64,000 nucleotides of DNA, from IMG/VR virus record IMGVR_UViG_3300042868_009434; one strand, written 5' to 3'. Below are positions 53,740 to 63,999 of the stretch, one piece after another. A program made the translations under genes and the position numbers. This stretch comes from a virus (lineage: Duplodnaviria; Heunggongvirae; Uroviricota; Caudoviricetes). The notes under the pieces are model-generated. The model searched no databases and was not told the DNA's origin. It saw only the letters and a program-made list of their open reading frames with translations. Position 1 is the stretch's first letter, and every line of letters starts with the position of its first letter.

Positions 53740-53952
53740 ATGAAAAAAGAAGAATTTGAAAATATAATTAAAGAACAACCAAATCTTAAAGATTTACCTA
53801 ATCAAAAGTTAGTTGAATTTATGGATTTATTATCTTCAGATTTTGAAGGTACTAAAGAGAATATTATTAATTCAACTCGTTATTTAGATAAATTAGAAGA
53901 ATTATACAATAACACTTTAAAAGTATACCAAGAAAGAAATAACAATGAGTAG
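53740..53952 (+). CDS. Hypothetical coiled-coil protein
   Basis: 70-aa coupled ORF. Confidence 0.45.
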   Translation: MKKEEFENIIKEQPNLKDLPNQKLVEFMDLLSSDFEGTKENIINSTRYLDKLEELYNNTLKVYQERNNNE

Positions 53953-55453
53953 ACCAATATTTTTTCAATGTATTGTATTAGATAATCAAGACCCTCTAAT
54001 GCTTGGAAGAGTTAGGGCAAGAATTGTTACGGATAATTACGAAGACATATTAAAAAGTGTTGATAGCCCAAAATGGAATCCTGAAACAGACCCATGGTCC
54101 CCAAGAGACCCTTTAGTTTTTAATACATTATTACCTTATTTTGTTTATCAAGTACCAAAAATAAATGAGTTAATTCAAGTTTTTTATGTAAATAGAGATT
54201 TTAAATATCAAAATCAATATTACATACAAAATAGTTTTTCAAGTCCAAGAGCATCATATGGTGAGTTTAATTTTGGTGCGAATGTACATACCGGTACAGG
54301 GTTACAAATTCAAAATCCTCAAGATTTAAAAAATAAAGATGGTAGTTTAGCTAATTCAATATCTAACGGGGTTTTTCCTGAACCAGGTGATAATGCAATA
54401 TTAGGCCGTGGTAGTGCCGATTTAATTGTAAAACAAGATGAGGTTTTATTAAGGGCAGGTAAATTTACTGATAATACTTTACAACCAACAATACCACCAA
54501 CAGGTAACGAAAATAGAGGTTATTTACAATTGACTCGTTTTAGTAGTACTAAAGAAAGTTTGTCCCCTAAAACTTATTTTGAATTTAAAGACAGGGTAAT
54601 TTTAAATAATTATTTAATTGAATGGACATTATCAAACCCTGAAAATACTCAAAATAAATTTACAGGTTCGGTTTATTTATATCAATTAAAACCCGATTCA
54701 TCGGTTAACACCAAAAATTTAACGGTAGGGAGTGTTGTAAGTGAAAATTTAAAAAAATTAGTTTACACACAACAATTCACATTATTATCAAAGGTCGATA
54801 CAATAAAATTCATAAATGATTTTATTAAAACTTGTAATTCTAAAAATTTTAGTTCTACCGGTGATAGATTATTTCCATCTGTTGGTACAAAATTTCCAAT
54901 ATTTTTTAGACCAACAAATTTAATGTATAATAAGTTAAAGTCGAATAATTCCACCGAAGTTAAAAATGTCTCAGAAATATACAAAGCAACTAAATTAAAT
55001 AGTGCTGACCAAGGAGGTTATGGTATAATTATAAGTCAAGATGTAGTTAGTTTAACAACTCCATTAACACCTGTAAAAGTGGTTGTACCTCAATCAAGAG
55101 AAATTGTTGGTATGACAACCTATGGTGCTTTAGGTAGTGATGCTTTATTTTTACTTTCAAATACTTCTCAAATTCCGGGTAAAAACAAAATTAATTTAAA
55201 AGACACATTATATGGAATTTCTTCTGATGTATTTGCAAATGAAATAATTCCAAATACTTCAAGTATGGTTCGTGGTGAAGAACTTTTAGAGTTAATTAAT
55301 TTGATTGTTAGATTCTTAGTTAGTCATACCCACGCTTATCCTGGATTAGCACCAGTTAGTATAACAGAAGACGGTTCAAACGTTTCAAACATCTTACAAG
55401 AACTACAAAATGCATATACTAAAATACTTAATACAACTATTCGACTTAATTGA
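53945..55453 (+). CDS. Baseplate central spike, gp5/VgrG-like OB-fold protein
   Basis: N-terminal V.DNQDP..LGRVRARI, VP.I.E.. OB-fold motif and a C-terminal HTH (HxH) tip motif. Confidence 0.7.
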   Translation: MSRPIFFQCIVLDNQDPLMLGRVRARIVTDNYEDILKSVDSPKWNPETDPWSPRDPLVFNTLLPYFVYQVPKINELIQVFYVNRDFKYQNQYYIQNSFSSPRASYGEFNFGANVHTGTGLQIQNPQDLKNKDGSLANSISNGVFPEPGDNAILGRGSADLIVKQDEVLLRAGKFTDNTLQPTIPPTGNENRGYLQLTRFSSTKESLSPKTYFEFKDRVILNNYLIEWTLSNPENTQNKFTGSVYLYQLKPDSSVNTKNLTVGSVVSENLKKLVYTQQFTLLSKVDTIKFINDFIKTCNSKNFSSTGDRLFPSVGTKFPIFFRPTNLMYNKLKSNNSTEVKNVSEIYKATKLNSADQGGYGIIISQDVVSLTTPLTPVKVVVPQSREIVGMTTYGALGSDALFLLSNTSQIPGKNKINLKDTLYGISSDVFANEIIPNTSSMVRGEELLELINLIVRFLVSHTHAYPGLAPVSITEDGSNVSNILQELQNAYTKILNTTIRLN

Positions 55454-56978: not shown

Positions 56979-57440
56979 ATGGCAAGAATAGTAAAATTAA
57001 CAGAATCAGATTTAACAAGATTAGTTGAGAAAGTTCTCAAAGAACAAGAAGTTGCTGATTATATGTTTTTCAGTAATCTACAACAAATTAAAAGACAATG
57101 TGAAGTATTGTTAGAAATGGACCCTCAACAAATTGATGAAATTATTAATGAAGGAGGACATGATTGGGCTGATGACCATGTAACTGAAGCTAAAAATAAT
57201 ATGGACCAAGTATTCGATTTCTTAATGAATGAAACAAAAAAAGAATATATTGATTACGAAGACATTACAGAAGGTAGAAAGAAAACCGGAACTAAATTAT
57301 GTGCAAGAGGTATGGCATCCGCCAAAGCTAAATATGACGTGTACCCCTCAGCTTATGCGAATGGACATGCTATTCAAGTATGTAAAGGTAAAATAAAAGG
57401 ACTTGATGGTAAAAAACATTGTTCAGGAGCATATTGTTAA
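56979..57440 (+). CDS. Hypothetical protein with KLTESDL leader and basic Cys domain
   Basis: MARIVKLTESDLTRLVEKVLKEQ...ITE-GRKKTGTKLCARG..AKAKYDVYPSAYANG..Q.CKG. Confidence 0.55.
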   Translation: MARIVKLTESDLTRLVEKVLKEQEVADYMFFSNLQQIKRQCEVLLEMDPQQIDEIINEGGHDWADDHVTEAKNNMDQVFDFLMNETKKEYIDYEDITEGRKKTGTKLCARGMASAKAKYDVYPSAYANGHAIQVCKGKIKGLDGKKHCSGAYC

Positions 57441-57503: not shown

Positions 57504-57534
57504 TTTGGTAATATCAAAAATATGATTATCTTTG
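57504..57534 (+). promoter_or_regulatory. Bacteroidota housekeeping-type promoter
   Basis: TTTG(57504)-N19-TATCTTTG(57527), an exact match to TTTG-N19/21-TAnnTTTG. Confidence 0.75.
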
Positions 57535-57557
57535 TGGTGTTAAAAAATACTAAACAA

Positions 57558-57968
57558 ATGAGAAGATATTTTAAAAGATTATTTAAGAGATTATGTTTAA
57601 GAATCTATTTAAGATTTAAAAGCATATCAAGAACTAATATGTCGTCTGTTGATGCAAATGAAATTAAGTCCTCCGCGATTTGTAGAAAATTAATTGCACA
57701 TCCGGATTCAACTTTTTTAATTGCACCATTATCTCAGAAAAGATACATCAAAAATGATTCTTTAGGTGTGTTTATTGTTTTATCCAACAATAGAATTAAC
57801 ATTACCAATCACGTTTATAATTACGACGTTAATTTAAATCAAACTATTTCCGATAAACTAAATGGTATTTTTGATAAAAAAGTGGAAGCTTTACGTTTAA
57901 AATTTGAAACTGAAATTAAAAGTCAAATTAAACATTCGTTAACCACAATACTTGAAAGACTAACCTAA
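57558..57968 (+). CDS. Hypothetical early protein
   Basis: The track start at 57522 lies inside the promoter, so the ATG at 57558 is preferred. Confidence 0.55.
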   Translation: MRRYFKRLFKRLCLRIYLRFKSISRTNMSSVDANEIKSSAICRKLIAHPDSTFLIAPLSQKRYIKNDSLGVFIVLSNNRINITNHVYNYDVNLNQTISDKLNGIFDKKVEALRLKFETEIKSQIKHSLTTILERLT

Positions 57969-58655
57969 TTAATTTTTATATTGTTCCTTAATTACTTTGA
58001 TGATTAAACCTCTTAACGATTCGTTTTGAGGTTTTTTTGGTTTATAACTAACCATAGTTGGTTTGTTACCCTTACCAATTTTTGGGTCTTTCTTTTCTTC
58101 TCTACGTTTTTGAGAACAAGCAGATTTTTTTTGACTATCACTCATTTTTCCCGCAACTCCAGCTGCCCGACATTTTGGATAACCTTTTGAATTTGCATCA
58201 GGTCGACCACATGGTGGATGTTTTCCGTCAACTTTACGACAAATATTAACCCAAGGACCACTTGGTTGTTTAGACCCTTTAGGTTTTTTCTTTGTACCAA
58301 ACCAAACCGCTAAATCTTCTCTTAATAAATCTTCTTTCAATGGTAATCCATCCATAGTTGGATTAACCGCAGAACCTTCTTCATCATTTTGTCCTCGGTA
58401 ATCTTTCTTTTGTTTCATTAATATTTTGGAAATTTTTATTGTTCTATTTTCAATTTCTTTTCGTTTTTGTGGTGTTTCTTTAAAATCACCAGCAGCCTCC
58501 TCATAAGCCAATTCAGCATTCGTATATTCGTACACATTATCAGTAAAAGGGCCTAATTGGTTTTTTTCCCAAATTTGAGGTGCTAATACTATTGGAACTT
58601 TAATTGAACCTGAATTTCCTGAACCGGTTGCTTCACTAATCTTATTCTTTTTCAT
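57969..58655 (-). CDS. Hypothetical protein with basic Cys-rich domain
   Basis: LLRE-DLAVWF...WVNIC...PCGR...YPKCR; TATTTAT at 58671-58677. Confidence 0.55.
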   Translation of the reverse strand: MKKNKISEATGSGNSGSIKVPIVLAPQIWEKNQLGPFTDNVYEYTNAELAYEEAAGDFKETPQKRKEIENRTIKISKILMKQKKDYRGQNDEEGSAVNPTMDGLPLKEDLLREDLAVWFGTKKKPKGSKQPSGPWVNICRKVDGKHPPCGRPDANSKGYPKCRAAGVAGKMSDSQKKSACSQKRREEKKDPKIGKGNKPTMVSYKPKKPQNESLRGLIIKVIKEQYKN

Positions 58656-59844: not shown

Positions 59845-59883
59845 AATAATCTAAAATCTATGAATAAATATATGTGAAAAAAT

Positions 59884-59914
59884 TTTGTGGTGTAGTGAAA
59901 AGTATTTATATTTG
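59884..59914 (+). promoter_or_regulatory. Bacteroidota housekeeping-type promoter
   Basis: TTTG(59884)-N19-TATATTTG(59907). Confidence 0.75.
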
Positions 59915-59931
59915 TAGAAAATTTATAAATT

Positions 59932-60204
59932 ATGAAAAAATTATTTATTACTTTAGTATTACTTGTTGGAACATTAACATTTTCTCAAACTAAACCAAAA
60001 ACAAAAGACATCGATAAGGATATCAATGTCTTATTAGATTCGTTATCTAAAGTCTATAAAGTAAAAGTTGGTTCAGTTATTGTTGAGGATTATCCTAATT
60101 TAAGAGTCACGTCAATTGCCTATTATCAAAACGATGAATTAACCTACAAAGTTATTCAAACAGAAAAAAACCCAACAAAAAGAAATATATTTGGCAACTA
60201 TTAA
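59932..60204 (+). CDS. Small exported protein (Sec signal peptide)
   Basis: MKK-LFITLVLLVGTLTFS/Q, with Gln at +1. Confidence 0.7.
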   Translation: MKKLFITLVLLVGTLTFSQTKPKTKDIDKDINVLLDSLSKVYKVKVGSVIVEDYPNLRVTSIAYYQNDELTYKVIQTEKNPTKRNIFGNY

Positions 60205-61373
60205 ATAGTTTTATTACAGTTTGCGGTGACACTATATCCGGTTTTAATCTTATATGTTCCAATTGGTGAATAAACTTTAAGTCCTGATTCACCAGAAGGT
60301 CCATTAAAATTTAAAGTTACTGGGCCTGTTTGTTGTGTATAAACAACAAATTCTTTAACACCTTGTTCACATAAACGTTTAAGGTCGTCTAATGGGTCAC
60401 CAACTTCATCATTTCCTCCACCAAAACTTTTTGTTGGGTCTATTAAAAGTTGTTTAAATAATTCTTCATAACTATTGGCAGTTATTTTAATAATTTTACT
60501 ACCACTAACCGATACATTATTTTTTAAATTAATAAGTGTTAATTGGTAAACATATAATGGAACCCATTTAAAATTTCTATATACATGAGCACGTGTTGTA
60601 ACATATCCGGTGTCTTGAGTTATTACATTATTTTTATTAGTAACAATTAATCTATCAGGAATACTTCCGGTATCAAAAGTTATAACACCTTTACCAAATA
60701 ATTTTTCATTGGTTAACACATAATCATACCTTTCTTCACCTTGTCCTGCGTTTATTTTTCTACCGGGCCATTGACAAATATTTTGGGAATCCGAATCTCT
60801 AACCTCTCCAGTTCCTTTAATATCGAAATTAACAAATTGTTCCTGTTTGTATAATTTAATTAATTCAGGATTTTTACTGTCACCTTTAGTTTTATCATAT
60901 GGTGTTTTACCTAAAACAACTTGGCTAGCATCCTTAGGTCCTTCAATAATTAAAGTACCGTTTTCAATTAACTCAGGAAATATTTCTTGAAAATATTGTT
61001 TAACCGAATTGGCTCTTGCCAAAGCTAAACTTCCTTTTGTTTCAAACCCTTTTGGATTTGTCACATTTGATTCTCCCGCACTAATATTTACAATAAATTC
61101 GTTACCACCACTTTTTTTAATAAATTCTTCAATTTTAGGTTTTAAAGCCTCAATAGAATTTTTAACAACATCAGATTGATATTCACCAAATTTAAATTGA
61201 TTTCCAATTTTTTGTGTTGGAAATACCGTATTAGCAGATGATGTAGTTGTTTTAGTTGCAATTGGTTGTACCGCCTGTTCTAAAGTTAAATATTGTCTAT
61301 TTGTTGCGGATTCATGAAGATTTAATATCCTATTTCTTTCATCTTCATCTATATTCCATGTTTGTTTAATCAT
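60201..61373 (-). CDS. OmpA-like-domain protein (OmpA-like domain N-terminal) with conserved leader
   Basis: F.FG, ISAGES, LALARANSVKQYF and EQFVNFDI resemble the OmpA_C fold; leader shared with 61889..62995. Confidence 0.6.
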   Translation of the reverse strand: MIKQTWNIDEDERNRILNLHESATNRQYLTLEQAVQPIATKTTTSSANTVFPTQKIGNQFKFGEYQSDVVKNSIEALKPKIEEFIKKSGGNEFIVNISAGESNVTNPKGFETKGSLALARANSVKQYFQEIFPELIENGTLIIEGPKDASQVVLGKTPYDKTKGDSKNPELIKLYKQEQFVNFDIKGTGEVRDSDSQNICQWPGRKINAGQGEERYDYVLTNEKLFGKGVITFDTGSIPDRLIVTNKNNVITQDTGYVTTRAHVYRNFKWVPLYVYQLTLINLKNNVSVSGSKIIKITANSYEELFKQLLIDPTKSFGGGNDEVGDPLDDLKRLCEQGVKEFVVYTQQTGPVTLNFNGPSGESGLKVYSPIGTYKIKTGYSVTANCNKTI

Positions 61374-61407
61374 TTTAACTATTTTATAATAAATATAACC
61401 AAAAAAT

Positions 61408-61438
61408 TTTGTGGGTAATTAAAAAATATTTATATTTG
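61408..61438 (+). promoter_or_regulatory. Bacteroidota housekeeping-type promoter, back-to-back with TATTTAT (61389-61395)
   Basis: TTTG(61408)-N19-TATATTTG(61431). Confidence 0.75.
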
Positions 61439-61463
61439 TACAAATATTAAAACATCTACACAT

Positions 61464-61853
61464 ATGAAAAACTTAATTACCATCATTCTTTTTATTTTTA
61501 TTTCAAATTTATCATTTGGTCAAATTCAAGCCGTAAAAGCGGGGAACTATTATGAATTAAATGATTTGTGGAAACGTGATTCCATATCAGTTAAACAATT
61601 AATGGATACCTACAAATTAGATATCTCTAATTTAGTTTATGTTAAATTTTTTGGCGATTTTGAATTAAGTCAAGAATTACACGATAACTACTCTTACACA
61701 ACATATGTTTATGCACTAGACAAGAAAACAGGTGTTGTCACTATGGAATCAATTCCTCACGTAAATAAAATACCAAAACCTAACAAATATGTTATGGTTT
61801 ATTGTTTTGATAATTATACTGACAGTAAAATTATTAATATTAAGGTATTTTAA
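61464..61853 (+). CDS. Small exported protein (Sec signal peptide)
   Basis: MKN-LITIILFIFISNLSFG/Q, with Gln at +1. Confidence 0.7.
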   Translation: MKNLITIILFIFISNLSFGQIQAVKAGNYYELNDLWKRDSISVKQLMDTYKLDISNLVYVKFFGDFELSQELHDNYSYTTYVYALDKKTGVVTMESIPHVNKIPKPNKYVMVYCFDNYTDSKIINIKVF

Positions 61854-61854
61854 T

Positions 61855-61890
61855 AAAAAAAAAAAGGGTCTTAATAGACCCTTTTTTTTT
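61855..61890. terminator. Bidirectional terminator
   Basis: A-tract, GGGTCT-TAAT-AGACCC, T-tract. Confidence 0.8.
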
Positions 61891-62995
61891 ATTGTTGTTG
61901 TTTCATTATTTGAGGAAGTTTAATAATTAATCTTCTATTAGGTGCCGTTTGATTTTCATCTGTTACGTCAGGCCATTTTTTACCCTTAGCAAATTGGTCA
62001 GTTTCTCCAATACCTTTAGGTATAAAATTTAATTTAATTCCCGGTAAACTATTTTTAAGAAGTGAAGCAATTGTTTCTGCTCTTTTTTTAGATAAATCCA
62101 TATTATAATCTTTTCTTTTTTGACCTGTTTTAAGTTTACCTTCAGGGTCTTCATCGATAGATGCTGATGATATTACTTCTACATCTCCTGTAGCATCAGA
62201 ATAATTAGTTTTAATTGATTTGATAAAATCTTTAAATTCTTGTTTAGCCTCATCTGTTAAATTAGTCTCATTAAATCTAAATGGACTTTCAATATTTAAT
62301 TCAAATGGTATATCTGTTGGTATGTCTTCAGGTGTTTCAGGTGTAGGTTTATTTGAAAAATATTTAGCACTAACACCAGGAAACAATTGTATTAAAATTC
62401 CTTTATTACCTTTTTTAACATACATTACTGGTGATATTGTATCATCTTCAGATTCTTCATACCTACCTTCTAATAAAGTTATATCCATCGCCACTATTTT
62501 TGCGGTATAAACTGTTGGTACTCCAACTTTTGTTTTGTCAAGTGCATGTGGAAGTCTTTTGTCTGAGAATGGGGGTGACATGGCAATAAGTTTATATTCA
62601 ACATTATTATATTGCATAGGCCTAATACCTTGTGAGGATAACGAAGTTGCACCAATTTCATTCCAATATTCGTCAGTAATTTTAAAATTTAAACCCCAAC
62701 CTTTATCGGAAATTAACTCCCCTGATTTATAATTAACTTTAAAATTATATAAATCACCACCTATATAAGTCCAAGGAGTCGCCTCTTTATTTTTTCTATC
62801 ATCCCATACTGAACAGTATAAGTAACCTTCGTTAATTTTAAAATATAGTGGAGTATTAACTATTTGATAATAAGAATCATCTATTACTTCTTCGTTTTCT
62901 TGTTCTGATAAGTACAATCTTTTAGTTGCACTCTCATGAAGATTTAAAATTCTATTTTTTTCATCCTCATTTATATTCCAATTCTGTTTAATCAT
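61889..62995 (-). CDS. OmpA-like-domain protein (OmpA-like domain C-terminal) with conserved leader
   Basis: FRFNETNL, YNMDLSKKRAETIA, KGIGE and PNRRLII; TATTTATA at 63010-63017. Confidence 0.8.
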   Translation of the reverse strand: MIKQNWNINEDEKNRILNLHESATKRLYLSEQENEEVIDDSYYQIVNTPLYFKINEGYLYCSVWDDRKNKEATPWTYIGGDLYNFKVNYKSGELISDKGWGLNFKITDEYWNEIGATSLSSQGIRPMQYNNVEYKLIAMSPPFSDKRLPHALDKTKVGVPTVYTAKIVAMDITLLEGRYEESEDDTISPVMYVKKGNKGILIQLFPGVSAKYFSNKPTPETPEDIPTDIPFELNIESPFRFNETNLTDEAKQEFKDFIKSIKTNYSDATGDVEVISSASIDEDPEGKLKTGQKRKDYNMDLSKKRAETIASLLKNSLPGIKLNFIPKGIGETDQFAKGKKWPDVTDENQTAPNRRLIIKLPQIMKQQQ

Positions 62996-63022
62996 TTCTA
63001 TTGTTTTACTATAAATACTTCG

Positions 63023-63058
63023 AAAAAAAAAAAGAGGACAAATATTTGTCCTCTTTTT
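63023..63058 (-). terminator. Terminator after major capsid gene
   Basis: AGAGGACA-N6-TGTCCTCT with a long T-tract on the minus strand. Confidence 0.8.
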
Positions 63059-63078: not shown

Positions 63079-63999
63079 TTATCTCAATTCTCTTAAGTCG
63101 AATGTTCTAACACCATCAACTGTGATACGTCCGTAGAATCTGTTGTTAACCATTTTCTTAGCGTAACGTGTCATAATACCTTTGATAGGTGTAAAGTTGA
63201 ATGGGTTGTACATTGTTGGAGTTAATTGTAACGGTACGTATGGTGCGTAGATGTATCCTGTGTCTAACAATGATGTTCCTTTGTGTCCCATTAACACTTG
63301 GTTTGGTGGGAAGTAAGGGTCACGGTAAACTTGGTAACGTCCTGCAAGAGTACCAACTCTTTCAATACCCATGTTGTATTGGTCTTGCTCAGGAGAAGCG
63401 TTTGATACGTGGAAGTATTCTAAATCGTCAAAGATAGCTGAGATTTCAGAAGAAACTACAATCCAGTTCGCTCCACCTCTTAATGTAGATTTGTGGATTT
63501 GAGCAGAGATTTGGTTAATCGCTGTGATAAGCGTTTGGTTCCAGTCTTTTTGAGTATAAGGAACTGCAGAAGACCCTAAACGTTTCCAACCATTGTAATC
63601 CCAACGTAAGTTCCATGCTGCACCTTTACGTAAATCTCTTAAGATTTCACGGTCGATTTCAGCCGCAACTTGCTCAGATAATAAAGCTGTTAATTCAGCT
63701 TCAGCATCGATGTTGTGGAATGCAGCAACGTCTTGAGCCATTTCAGGAGACCATTGTGCTCTTAATTTTCTTTCTGTTACAGAAACAGTTACCGACATTA
63801 AGTCAAAAGAAACCTCACCAATTCTATCTTCAAACTCTAAGTTTTTGTAGATTCTATAACTAGCTACAAATGAAGTGTTTGATGTAGTATTAGATGAGAA
63901 TGTTGAACCTGTATAACCGTCCATTGAACCACCACAAGTAATACATACTGGTACTTGTAAATCAACTTCTAAGTAAATTTTACCTTCAGCATCACATAA
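63079..63999 (-). CDS. gp23: Major capsid protein (T4 gp23-like), partial; continues beyond the window
   Basis: RKLRAQWSPEMAQD, DAEAEL..LLSEQ...EIDREI, RGGANW, YAPYVPL and P..GIMTRY. The frame stays open upstream of 63924 (LCDAEGKIYLEVDLQVPVCITCGGS). Confidence 0.95.
   Translation of the reverse strand, partial: LCDAEGKIYLEVDLQVPVCITCGGSMDGYTGSTFSSNTTSNTSFVASYRIYKNLEFEDRIGEVSFDLMSVTVSVTERKLRAQWSPEMAQDVAAFHNIDAEAELTALLSEQVAAEIDREILRDLRKGAAWNLRWDYNGWKRLGSSAVPYTQKDWNQTLITAINQISAQIHKSTLRGGANWIVVSSEISAIFDDLEYFHVSNASPEQDQYNMGIERVGTLAGRYQVYRDPYFPPNQVLMGHKGTSLLDTGYIYAPYVPLQLTPTMYNPFNFTPIKGIMTRYAKKMVNNRFYGRITVDGVRTFDLRELR

Follow-up and report, generated by a model that had tools for sequence, protein, structure and literature searches.

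A duplicated pair of late and early genes behind the capsid gene of a T4-like phage: a candidate superinfection-exclusion module

Why would a phage place, directly behind its major capsid gene, two tandem units in which a late gene for a peptidoglycan-binding type of protein faces an early gene for a small exported protein? The units lie at positions 59,863 to 63,017 of a 64,000-nucleotide stretch of viral DNA from IMG/VR record IMGVR_UViG_3300042868_009434, which we call the window; we name the late genes A and B and their small partners sA and sB. The reading that we favour, with a probability of roughly 40%, is that a virion-borne wall-binding protein is matched with a cognate early periplasmic partner in a Spackle-like superinfection exclusion. 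It builds on features of the locus that are established here, namely its anatomy, promoter classes, export signals, OmpA fold, hypervariability, co-variation and the mobility of the B-sB pair.

In this reading, a T4-like phage that infects freshwater Bacteroidota carries each unit as a module of two genes. The late protein lacks a secretion signal; its leader of 33 residues would most likely target it to the virion, probably to the prohead, where a gp21-type head protease then probably cuts the leader off at an L/I-x-E site. The mature protein, consisting of an OmpA-like peptidoglycan-binding domain and a variable domain of binding type, would reach the cell wall on infection. The convergent small gene would be read early, from a host-type promoter, and its product, exported to the periplasm, would recognise the variable domain of its cognate late protein. 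The infected cell could thereby shut out later phages of the same type, as gp5 is inhibited by Spackle in T4, and competition between related phages would drive the joint diversification of the pairs.

Two tandem pairs of late and early genes

The source phage is large and T4-like, with ~30% G+C, and both modules are directly downstream of a T4-type major capsid gene on the minus strand (Table 1). The four open reading frames (ORFs) have the coordinates and orientations given in the original prediction: sA and sB each converge with their own late gene, and the stop codons of A and sA overlap (60201-60204). A and B are identical at 24 of their 33 N-terminal residues, a common leader first put at about 32 residues, and share no other likeness. 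Their N-termini are hydrophilic, with no signal peptide, and the domains that accompany the OmpA-like domains have no sequence similarity to each other. The claim that the OmpA-like domains sit at opposite ends also holds (residues 43-189 in A, 220-365 in B), for A by predicted fold only.

For B, the assignment comes from sequence as well as from structure: residues 239-341 match Pfam PF00691 (OmpA_C; E 5e-7, 30.4 bits against a cut-off of 27.2), the family profile also matches the OmpA-like domain of FopA1 (6u83, E 4e-4), and residues 220-365 of the AlphaFold model give Z scores of 10-11. A had no Pfam match at E values up to 0.1 and no sequence match in the Protein Data Bank (PDB), where its family profile found no OmpA match either; in its AlphaFold model, residues 43-189 are OmpA-like by Foldseek (probability 1.0, E 2e-4) and by VIA (Z 9.9, root-mean-square deviation 2.7, 116 aligned). 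The mean predicted local distance difference test score (pLDDT) of the two models is ~76 (A 77). An Asp and an Arg that hold the peptidoglycan peptide are typical of peptidoglycan-binding OmpA domains. In B, D281 and R305, in an N-x-x-LS-x-x-RA context, are invariant in 37 homologues, and in A R120 is invariant, but E101 stands where Asp is expected; these positions were assigned by motif, by eye. The variable part of A (residues 197-390) is modelled as a beta-sandwich resembling GOLD, PirA or PPC domains with a middling Z of ~8.4, and searches with it returned generic beta-sandwiches only. The N-domain of B (residues 40-215 in the model) had no fold match from the model of B and no match in the ESM Atlas.

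sA and sB have no sequence similarity to each other, as had been proposed, and both are predicted to be exported, with Bacteroidota-type signal peptides of the signal-peptidase-I type, no Cys at +1 and no lipobox. The calls were made with simple sequence rules devised in this analysis. In the relatives, the distinct products of small genes that converge on a leader gene number 52, and the rules call a signal peptide in 48 of them (38 with Gln at +1, 10 with a lipobox); of the 637 other ORFs of these loci, 7 pass. Gln at +1 after signal-peptide cleavage is the Q-rule of Bacteroidetes (PMC5837995). The partner slot is filled by at least 11 mutually unrelated exported families; neither sA and sB nor ten of the partner families found in relatives could be assigned to a family in Pfam, PHROGs, PADLOC or the ESM Atlas.

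When are the two kinds of genes read? The cassettes upstream of sA and sB are homologous, with 52 of 66 aligned positions identical, and both contain TTTG-N-TAnnTTTG. This motif is not enriched within the window (7 found, 5.1 expected); in relatives, its host-type promoter form is present in ~33 of 46 distinct upstream regions of partner genes and in 0 of ~430 upstream regions of structural genes. A scan for sigma-70 promoters is uninformative for a Bacteroidota host. The late-type motif TATTTAT lies at most 45 nucleotides from the start codon in 33/36 A-type, 12/13 B-type and 7/7 C-type genes, as well as in 31/36 scaffold-like and 29/34 protease genes, against a background of 2%. The motif census across relatives bears out the assignment in the original prediction of a host-type, early promoter to the small genes and a late motif to the large ones. 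At sequence level, sA and sB resemble a Spackle-type protein in three traits: early by their host-type promoter, small and exported.

Two further observations concern transcription. A terminator-like hairpin lies inside sA (window 60005-60032, minus strand), so that the 3' end of the A transcript would be antisense to sA; sA might be shut down by such convergent transcription once infection has reached its late phase. A third match to the Bacteroidota-type promoter (57504-57534, plus strand) falls at the start of ORF 57522-57968, likewise in 6 of 30 relatives, and the true start codon of this ORF may lie further downstream.

Table 1. Features of the two modules and the adjoining capsid gene (window coordinates)
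Feature	Position	Strand	Basis
T4-type major capsid gene (gp23 family), 3' part only	63079..63999	-	Pfam Gp23 E 3.9e-61; full-length orthologues in relatives
Terminator-like hairpin, 3' of capsid gene	63029..63058	-	Sequence scan
Late-type motif TATTTAT, upstream of gene B	63011..63017	-	Sequence; motif census
Gene B, 368 residues: leader, variable N-domain, C-terminal OmpA-like domain	61889..62995	-	ORF, Pfam, AlphaFold model
B leader, residues 1-33; L-H-E at 19-21, L-S-E at 29-31	62897..62995	-	Alignment
B variable N-domain, residues 38-215; no fold match; divergence parallels sB	62351..62884	-	Model and comparison
B OmpA-like domain, residues 220-365; D281 and R305 invariant in family	61901..62338	-	Pfam, model, alignment
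Two-way terminator hairpin, between sB and B	61857..61890	.	Sequence scan
sB, 129 residues; signal peptide, predicted cleavage before invariant Q20; orphan family	61464..61853	+	ORF, sequence rules
Bacteroidota-type host promoter of sB (TTTG...TAnnTTTG)	61408..61438	+	Motif
Late-type motif TATTTAT, upstream of gene A	61389..61395	-	Motif census
Gene A, 390 residues: leader, OmpA-like domain, variable C-terminal beta-sandwich	60201..61373	-	ORF, AlphaFold model
A leader, residues 1-33	61275..61373	-	Alignment
A OmpA-like domain, residues 43-189, predicted fold only; E101 and R120 invariant	60807..61247	-	Model, alignment
A variable C-domain, residues 197-390; beta-sandwich like GOLD, PirA or PPC (Z ~8.4, middling)	60204..60785	-	Model
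sA, 90 residues; signal peptide, predicted cleavage before Q19; orphan family	59932..60204	+	ORF, sequence rules
Bacteroidota-type host promoter of sA	59884..59914	+	Motif

Co-variation and mobility of the pairs

The stretch is present in lake-water metagenomes of many studies, and related as well as near-identical contigs are common in IMG/VR, including a complete relative of 318 kb. Among isolated phages, DNA and protein searches with A, B and the whole region gave no match, and the nearest cultured relative of the capsid protein, from a Flavobacterium phage at 44%, does not have the module arrangement. In ~100 related viral loci the architecture is kept, with each leader gene followed by one convergent small gene, though exceptions exist; loci with one module and loci with two alike have as many exported partners as leader genes.

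Identity drops to 40-77% within the module, a hypervariable island whose neighbouring genes are 95-100% identical. In the comparison with locus L010, identity is 100% for the protease, c12, c9, c7 and c10 and 95% for the capsid protein, but 41% for the B N-domain, 62% for sB, 72-77% for A and 69% for sA. What varies together within the island? In B-type pairs, the divergence of sB follows that of the B N-domain (r=0.91) and not that of the OmpA domain (r=0.37; partial r=-0.35), descriptive values from 8-11 related, non-independent sequences. The OmpA segment is the one encoded between the N-domain and sB. A single comparison, that of the window with L069, has the same pattern: the OmpA domain of B is 96% identical, the N-domain 61% and sB 62%.

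Two more B-type variants follow the same pattern. A further diverged B N-domain in L124 is accompanied by a new exported partner family, and a second type of B N-domain in L055, L056, L065 and L125 retains a second partner family, c52. L037 has an identical partner promoter, but its small ORF and its A C-domain have both been replaced; the same replaced segment, 59950-60819, is also found in a contig of one sequencing run. The B-sB pair can also move: in G007, the relative of the L069 comparison, it has a different leader and is found at a distance of 13 kb from the capsid gene, and an A-sA module stays behind the capsid gene. Free reassortment of partners across related phages would have spoken against the original prediction; instead the partners co-vary, and B and sB move as a unit. 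Its description of the units as an effector-immunity or exclusion pair stands as far as the co-varying pairs are concerned, with 'effector-immunity' being the looser fit, as A and B show no toxic or enzymatic domain. A single complex prediction, of B residues 38-368 with mature sB and with alignments for both, reached 0.30 where the mark is 0.32, and counts neither way.

One rearranged locus deserves separate mention. L126:2346-2942 (minus strand) encodes a hybrid of an N-terminus resembling sigma-70 region 2, with no signal peptide, and the last 75 residues of the c52 family; it looks like a partner disrupted by rearrangement.

The leader and its link to head genes

How would late proteins with no signal peptide come to meet a periplasmic partner? 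The leader of 33 residues heads 57 distinct proteins in the loci that we fetched. Among the positions conserved in it are L/M-H-E at 19-21, which is invariant, and the end Y-L-(x)-x-E-Q, and conservation stops at this E-Q junction ([LIV]-x-E-Q); in the models, the leader is a low-confidence helix followed by a disordered linker. The bodies behind it form three families, namely the A type (OmpA-like domain first, variable C-terminus), the B type (variable N-domain, C-terminal OmpA domain) and a third type of ~400 residues. A search with the leader profile matched 1,190 cluster representatives among 1.84 billion proteins, almost always at residues 1-36. By profiles built in this analysis, 51 of the 70 matches of at least 250 residues contain an OmpA-like domain; among the remainder, three have PG_binding_1 and one (P0429) a YkuD/Tlde1 L,D-transpeptidase domain. 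Because of these three kinds of predicted domain, peptidoglycan is the common theme of the leader-tagged proteins. Against isolated phages, the leader alone gave chance-level matches to microvirus pilot proteins only (E ~1).

The modules adjoin head genes. All relatives share one gene order: head maturation protease, small gene, acidic scaffold-like gene, capsid gene and leader gene or genes, and the protease near the modules belongs to phrog_207 (E 2e-41). L/I-x-E marks the sites after which proteases of the gp21 type cleave, and the capsid targeting sequences of T4 have such a site at their end (PMC9026906); ejection proteins of giant phages likewise combine common propeptides with diverged bodies (PMC5694885). 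In T4 gp23, gp21 cuts after L-T-E65 (L-T-E/A, the slash marking the cut), 30 residues before the block that aligns with the window-type capsid protein, which itself has an invariant L-I-N-E60/A 14 residues before the block aligning to gp23. Five leader proteins end in exactly Y-L-I-N-E. At motif level, the locus has two hallmarks of T4-type head proteins, a conserved N-terminal propeptide on unrelated bodies and L/I-x-E at the junction together with a gp21-type protease. The leader is a plausible packaging signal, since it tags many bodies, ends in L/I-x-E like the predicted capsid maturation site and stands behind the late motif that the genes for the protease and the scaffold also carry.

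Several neighbouring or related genes touch on this subject. The 228-residue basic protein encoded at 57969-58655 (minus strand) has a short N-terminus ending in I-S-E/A, with the late motif upstream in 26 of 29 relatives; these sequence features liken it to the internal proteins of T4, and its N-terminus to a short targeting peptide. A second conserved leader type (K-L-T-E-S-D-L...V-L-K-E-Q) heads a 153-residue protein with a Cys-rich C-terminus (56979-57440, plus strand; phrog_27331), and also the relocated B-like protein of L069 and a 110-residue ORF in L121. On the metagenome contig L121, positions 707-2447 encode a YkuD/Tlde1 L,D-transpeptidase-like protein with both leader types in tandem, which adjoins a YkuD_2 protein bearing a signal peptide and a ClpC-like gene; leader modules may have a second hot spot here, close to the phage Clp locus. 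Further from the modules, the 502-residue ORF at 53945-55453 (plus strand) has an N-terminus that by eye resembles baseplate central-spike proteins (gpV/gp5 OB-fold), with no match in PHROGs; if it is spike-like, the modules would sit between the head and baseplate gene blocks.

Competing readings and known systems

Several points weigh against the exclusion reading. For A, B and their partners, packaging, cleavage, periplasmic delivery, direct binding and exclusion are steps that we infer. Motifs of the form L/I-x-E are common by chance, and the leader profile has no significant match to the capsid propeptide, the likeness being confined to a motif of five residues. T4-type head contents normally enter the cytoplasm, not the periplasm. 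Pfam, fold and Atlas searches found no enzymatic or toxic domain in A or B, so that a partner would have no evident activity to neutralise. The co-variation draws on few and related sequences, L099 and L043 have no exported partner, and that of L126 is disrupted.

The main rival is an exclusion that acts through the host: the late virion protein would engage a structure of the host envelope and the small exported protein or lipoprotein would mask or alter the same target from the periplasm, so that the pair co-varies with no contact between its members. T5 offers a precedent in Llp, a small early lipoprotein encoded beside the receptor-binding protein gene, which blocks the receptor from the periplasmic side (PMC9586334). 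Lipoproteins account for 10 of the 52 partners, the variable domains look like binding modules, and the position of the module between head genes and baseplate-like genes would suit such a role. We nevertheless consider this mechanism unlikely for the window, as neither sA nor sB has a lipobox, both the leader and a location behind the capsid gene suggest the head and not the tail tip, and peptidoglycan, the common target to which the domain content points, is too little polymorphic to explain at least 11 partner families.

Could the pairing have no function at all? The site behind the capsid gene might be a recombination hot spot where independent early 'moron' genes for exported proteins gather beside fast-evolving late genes and co-vary through linkage alone. 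The flanking terminators and conserved promoters could serve as recombination anchors, the sampled pairs are phylogenetically related, and the exported partner is missing or disrupted in some loci. Linkage alone fits poorly with the one-to-one numbers of leader genes and partners, with a B-sB pair that is kept after relocation, with an sB that tracks the distal N-domain and not the adjacent OmpA segment, and with the rarity of other exported-looking ORFs in the same loci, and we give this explanation still less weight than a host target. A role in lysis, in which late signal-less wall-binding proteins reach peptidoglycan through holin lesions as endolysins do and the exported partners are periplasmic regulators or spanin- or antiholin-like proteins, shares the endolysin logic of a late, cytoplasmic, peptidoglycan-directed protein and could accommodate the relatives with PG_binding_1 or YkuD/Tlde1 catalytic domains and the small lipoproteins that recall o-spanins, but it is improbable given that no muralytic domain was seen in A or B, that the partners' promoters are host-type and not late, and that it offers no evident reason for such hypervariability or for a cleavable-looking leader beside head genes.

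If the exclusion reading is extended, the modules could form a polymorphic system of kin discrimination in jumbo T4-like Bacteroidota phages: peptidoglycan-directed proteins, packaged in the capsid and matured by its protease, would be delivered to the periplasm and recognised allele by allele by the early periplasmic partners of the resident phage, controlling superinfection exclusion or possibly lysis timing among co-occurring strains. This wider proposal is tentative, and we rather doubt that it holds in full; if true, it would be a phage-to-phage counterpart of the effector-immunity pairs of type VI secretion systems (T6SS). A functional pairing would by itself provide a marker, readable from sequence, of competition between co-occurring strains of abundant lake phages, define a new class of virion-delivered, wall-directed proteins and add more than ten orphan families to the candidate exclusion proteins. 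The 33-residue leader could serve to find virion cargo in uncultured Bacteroidota phages.

Finally, we would compare the modules with four known systems. The polymorphic Tlde1-Tldi1 effector-immunity cassettes of T6SS resemble them in that a variable domain and the neighbouring gene for a small periplasmic protein swap together, and one leader-bearing relative, P0429, has a Tlde1/YkuD domain; they differ in that no toxin domain was found in A or B, that delivery would be by the virion and that the genes of the window are convergent and of different temporal classes. The internal proteins and Alt of T4 share the short conserved N-terminal propeptide on unrelated proteins, ending at the L/I-x-E of a gp21-type protease, and variable loci that are thought to reflect arms races (PMC9026906, PMC5694885). 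Their propeptides have 10-20 residues, unrelated in sequence to the 33 of the window leader, and their cargo is anti-restriction or ADP-ribosylating, whereas that of the window is predicted to bind peptidoglycan, would be packaged by analogy and is encoded directly after the capsid gene.

T5 Llp, together with Cor of T1 and phi80, has the same layout, in which a late virion-protein gene adjoins an early gene whose small exported product, a protein or lipoprotein, brings about superinfection exclusion (PMC9586334), provided that A and B are indeed virion proteins. Llp, however, acts on a host receptor and not on a phage protein, sA and sB are not lipoproteins, and the late proteins of the window have a head-type leader and an OmpA-like domain. 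In T4, the early Sec-exported small periplasmic protein Spackle (gp61.3) neutralises the virion-borne gp5 tail lysozyme of superinfecting phages (PMC7677548, PMC7650644), and sA and sB would likewise be early exported small proteins set against a peptidoglycan-directed one. The two systems have no sequence relation; A and B have a binding fold and are no lysozymes, the partner genes of the window are adjacent, convergent, duplicated and hypervariable, and binding of their products to the late proteins is presumed. Judged by these likenesses, Spackle-gp5 is the closest functional precedent for the modules, while T5 Llp is the closest architectural precedent and supplies the main rival mechanism.

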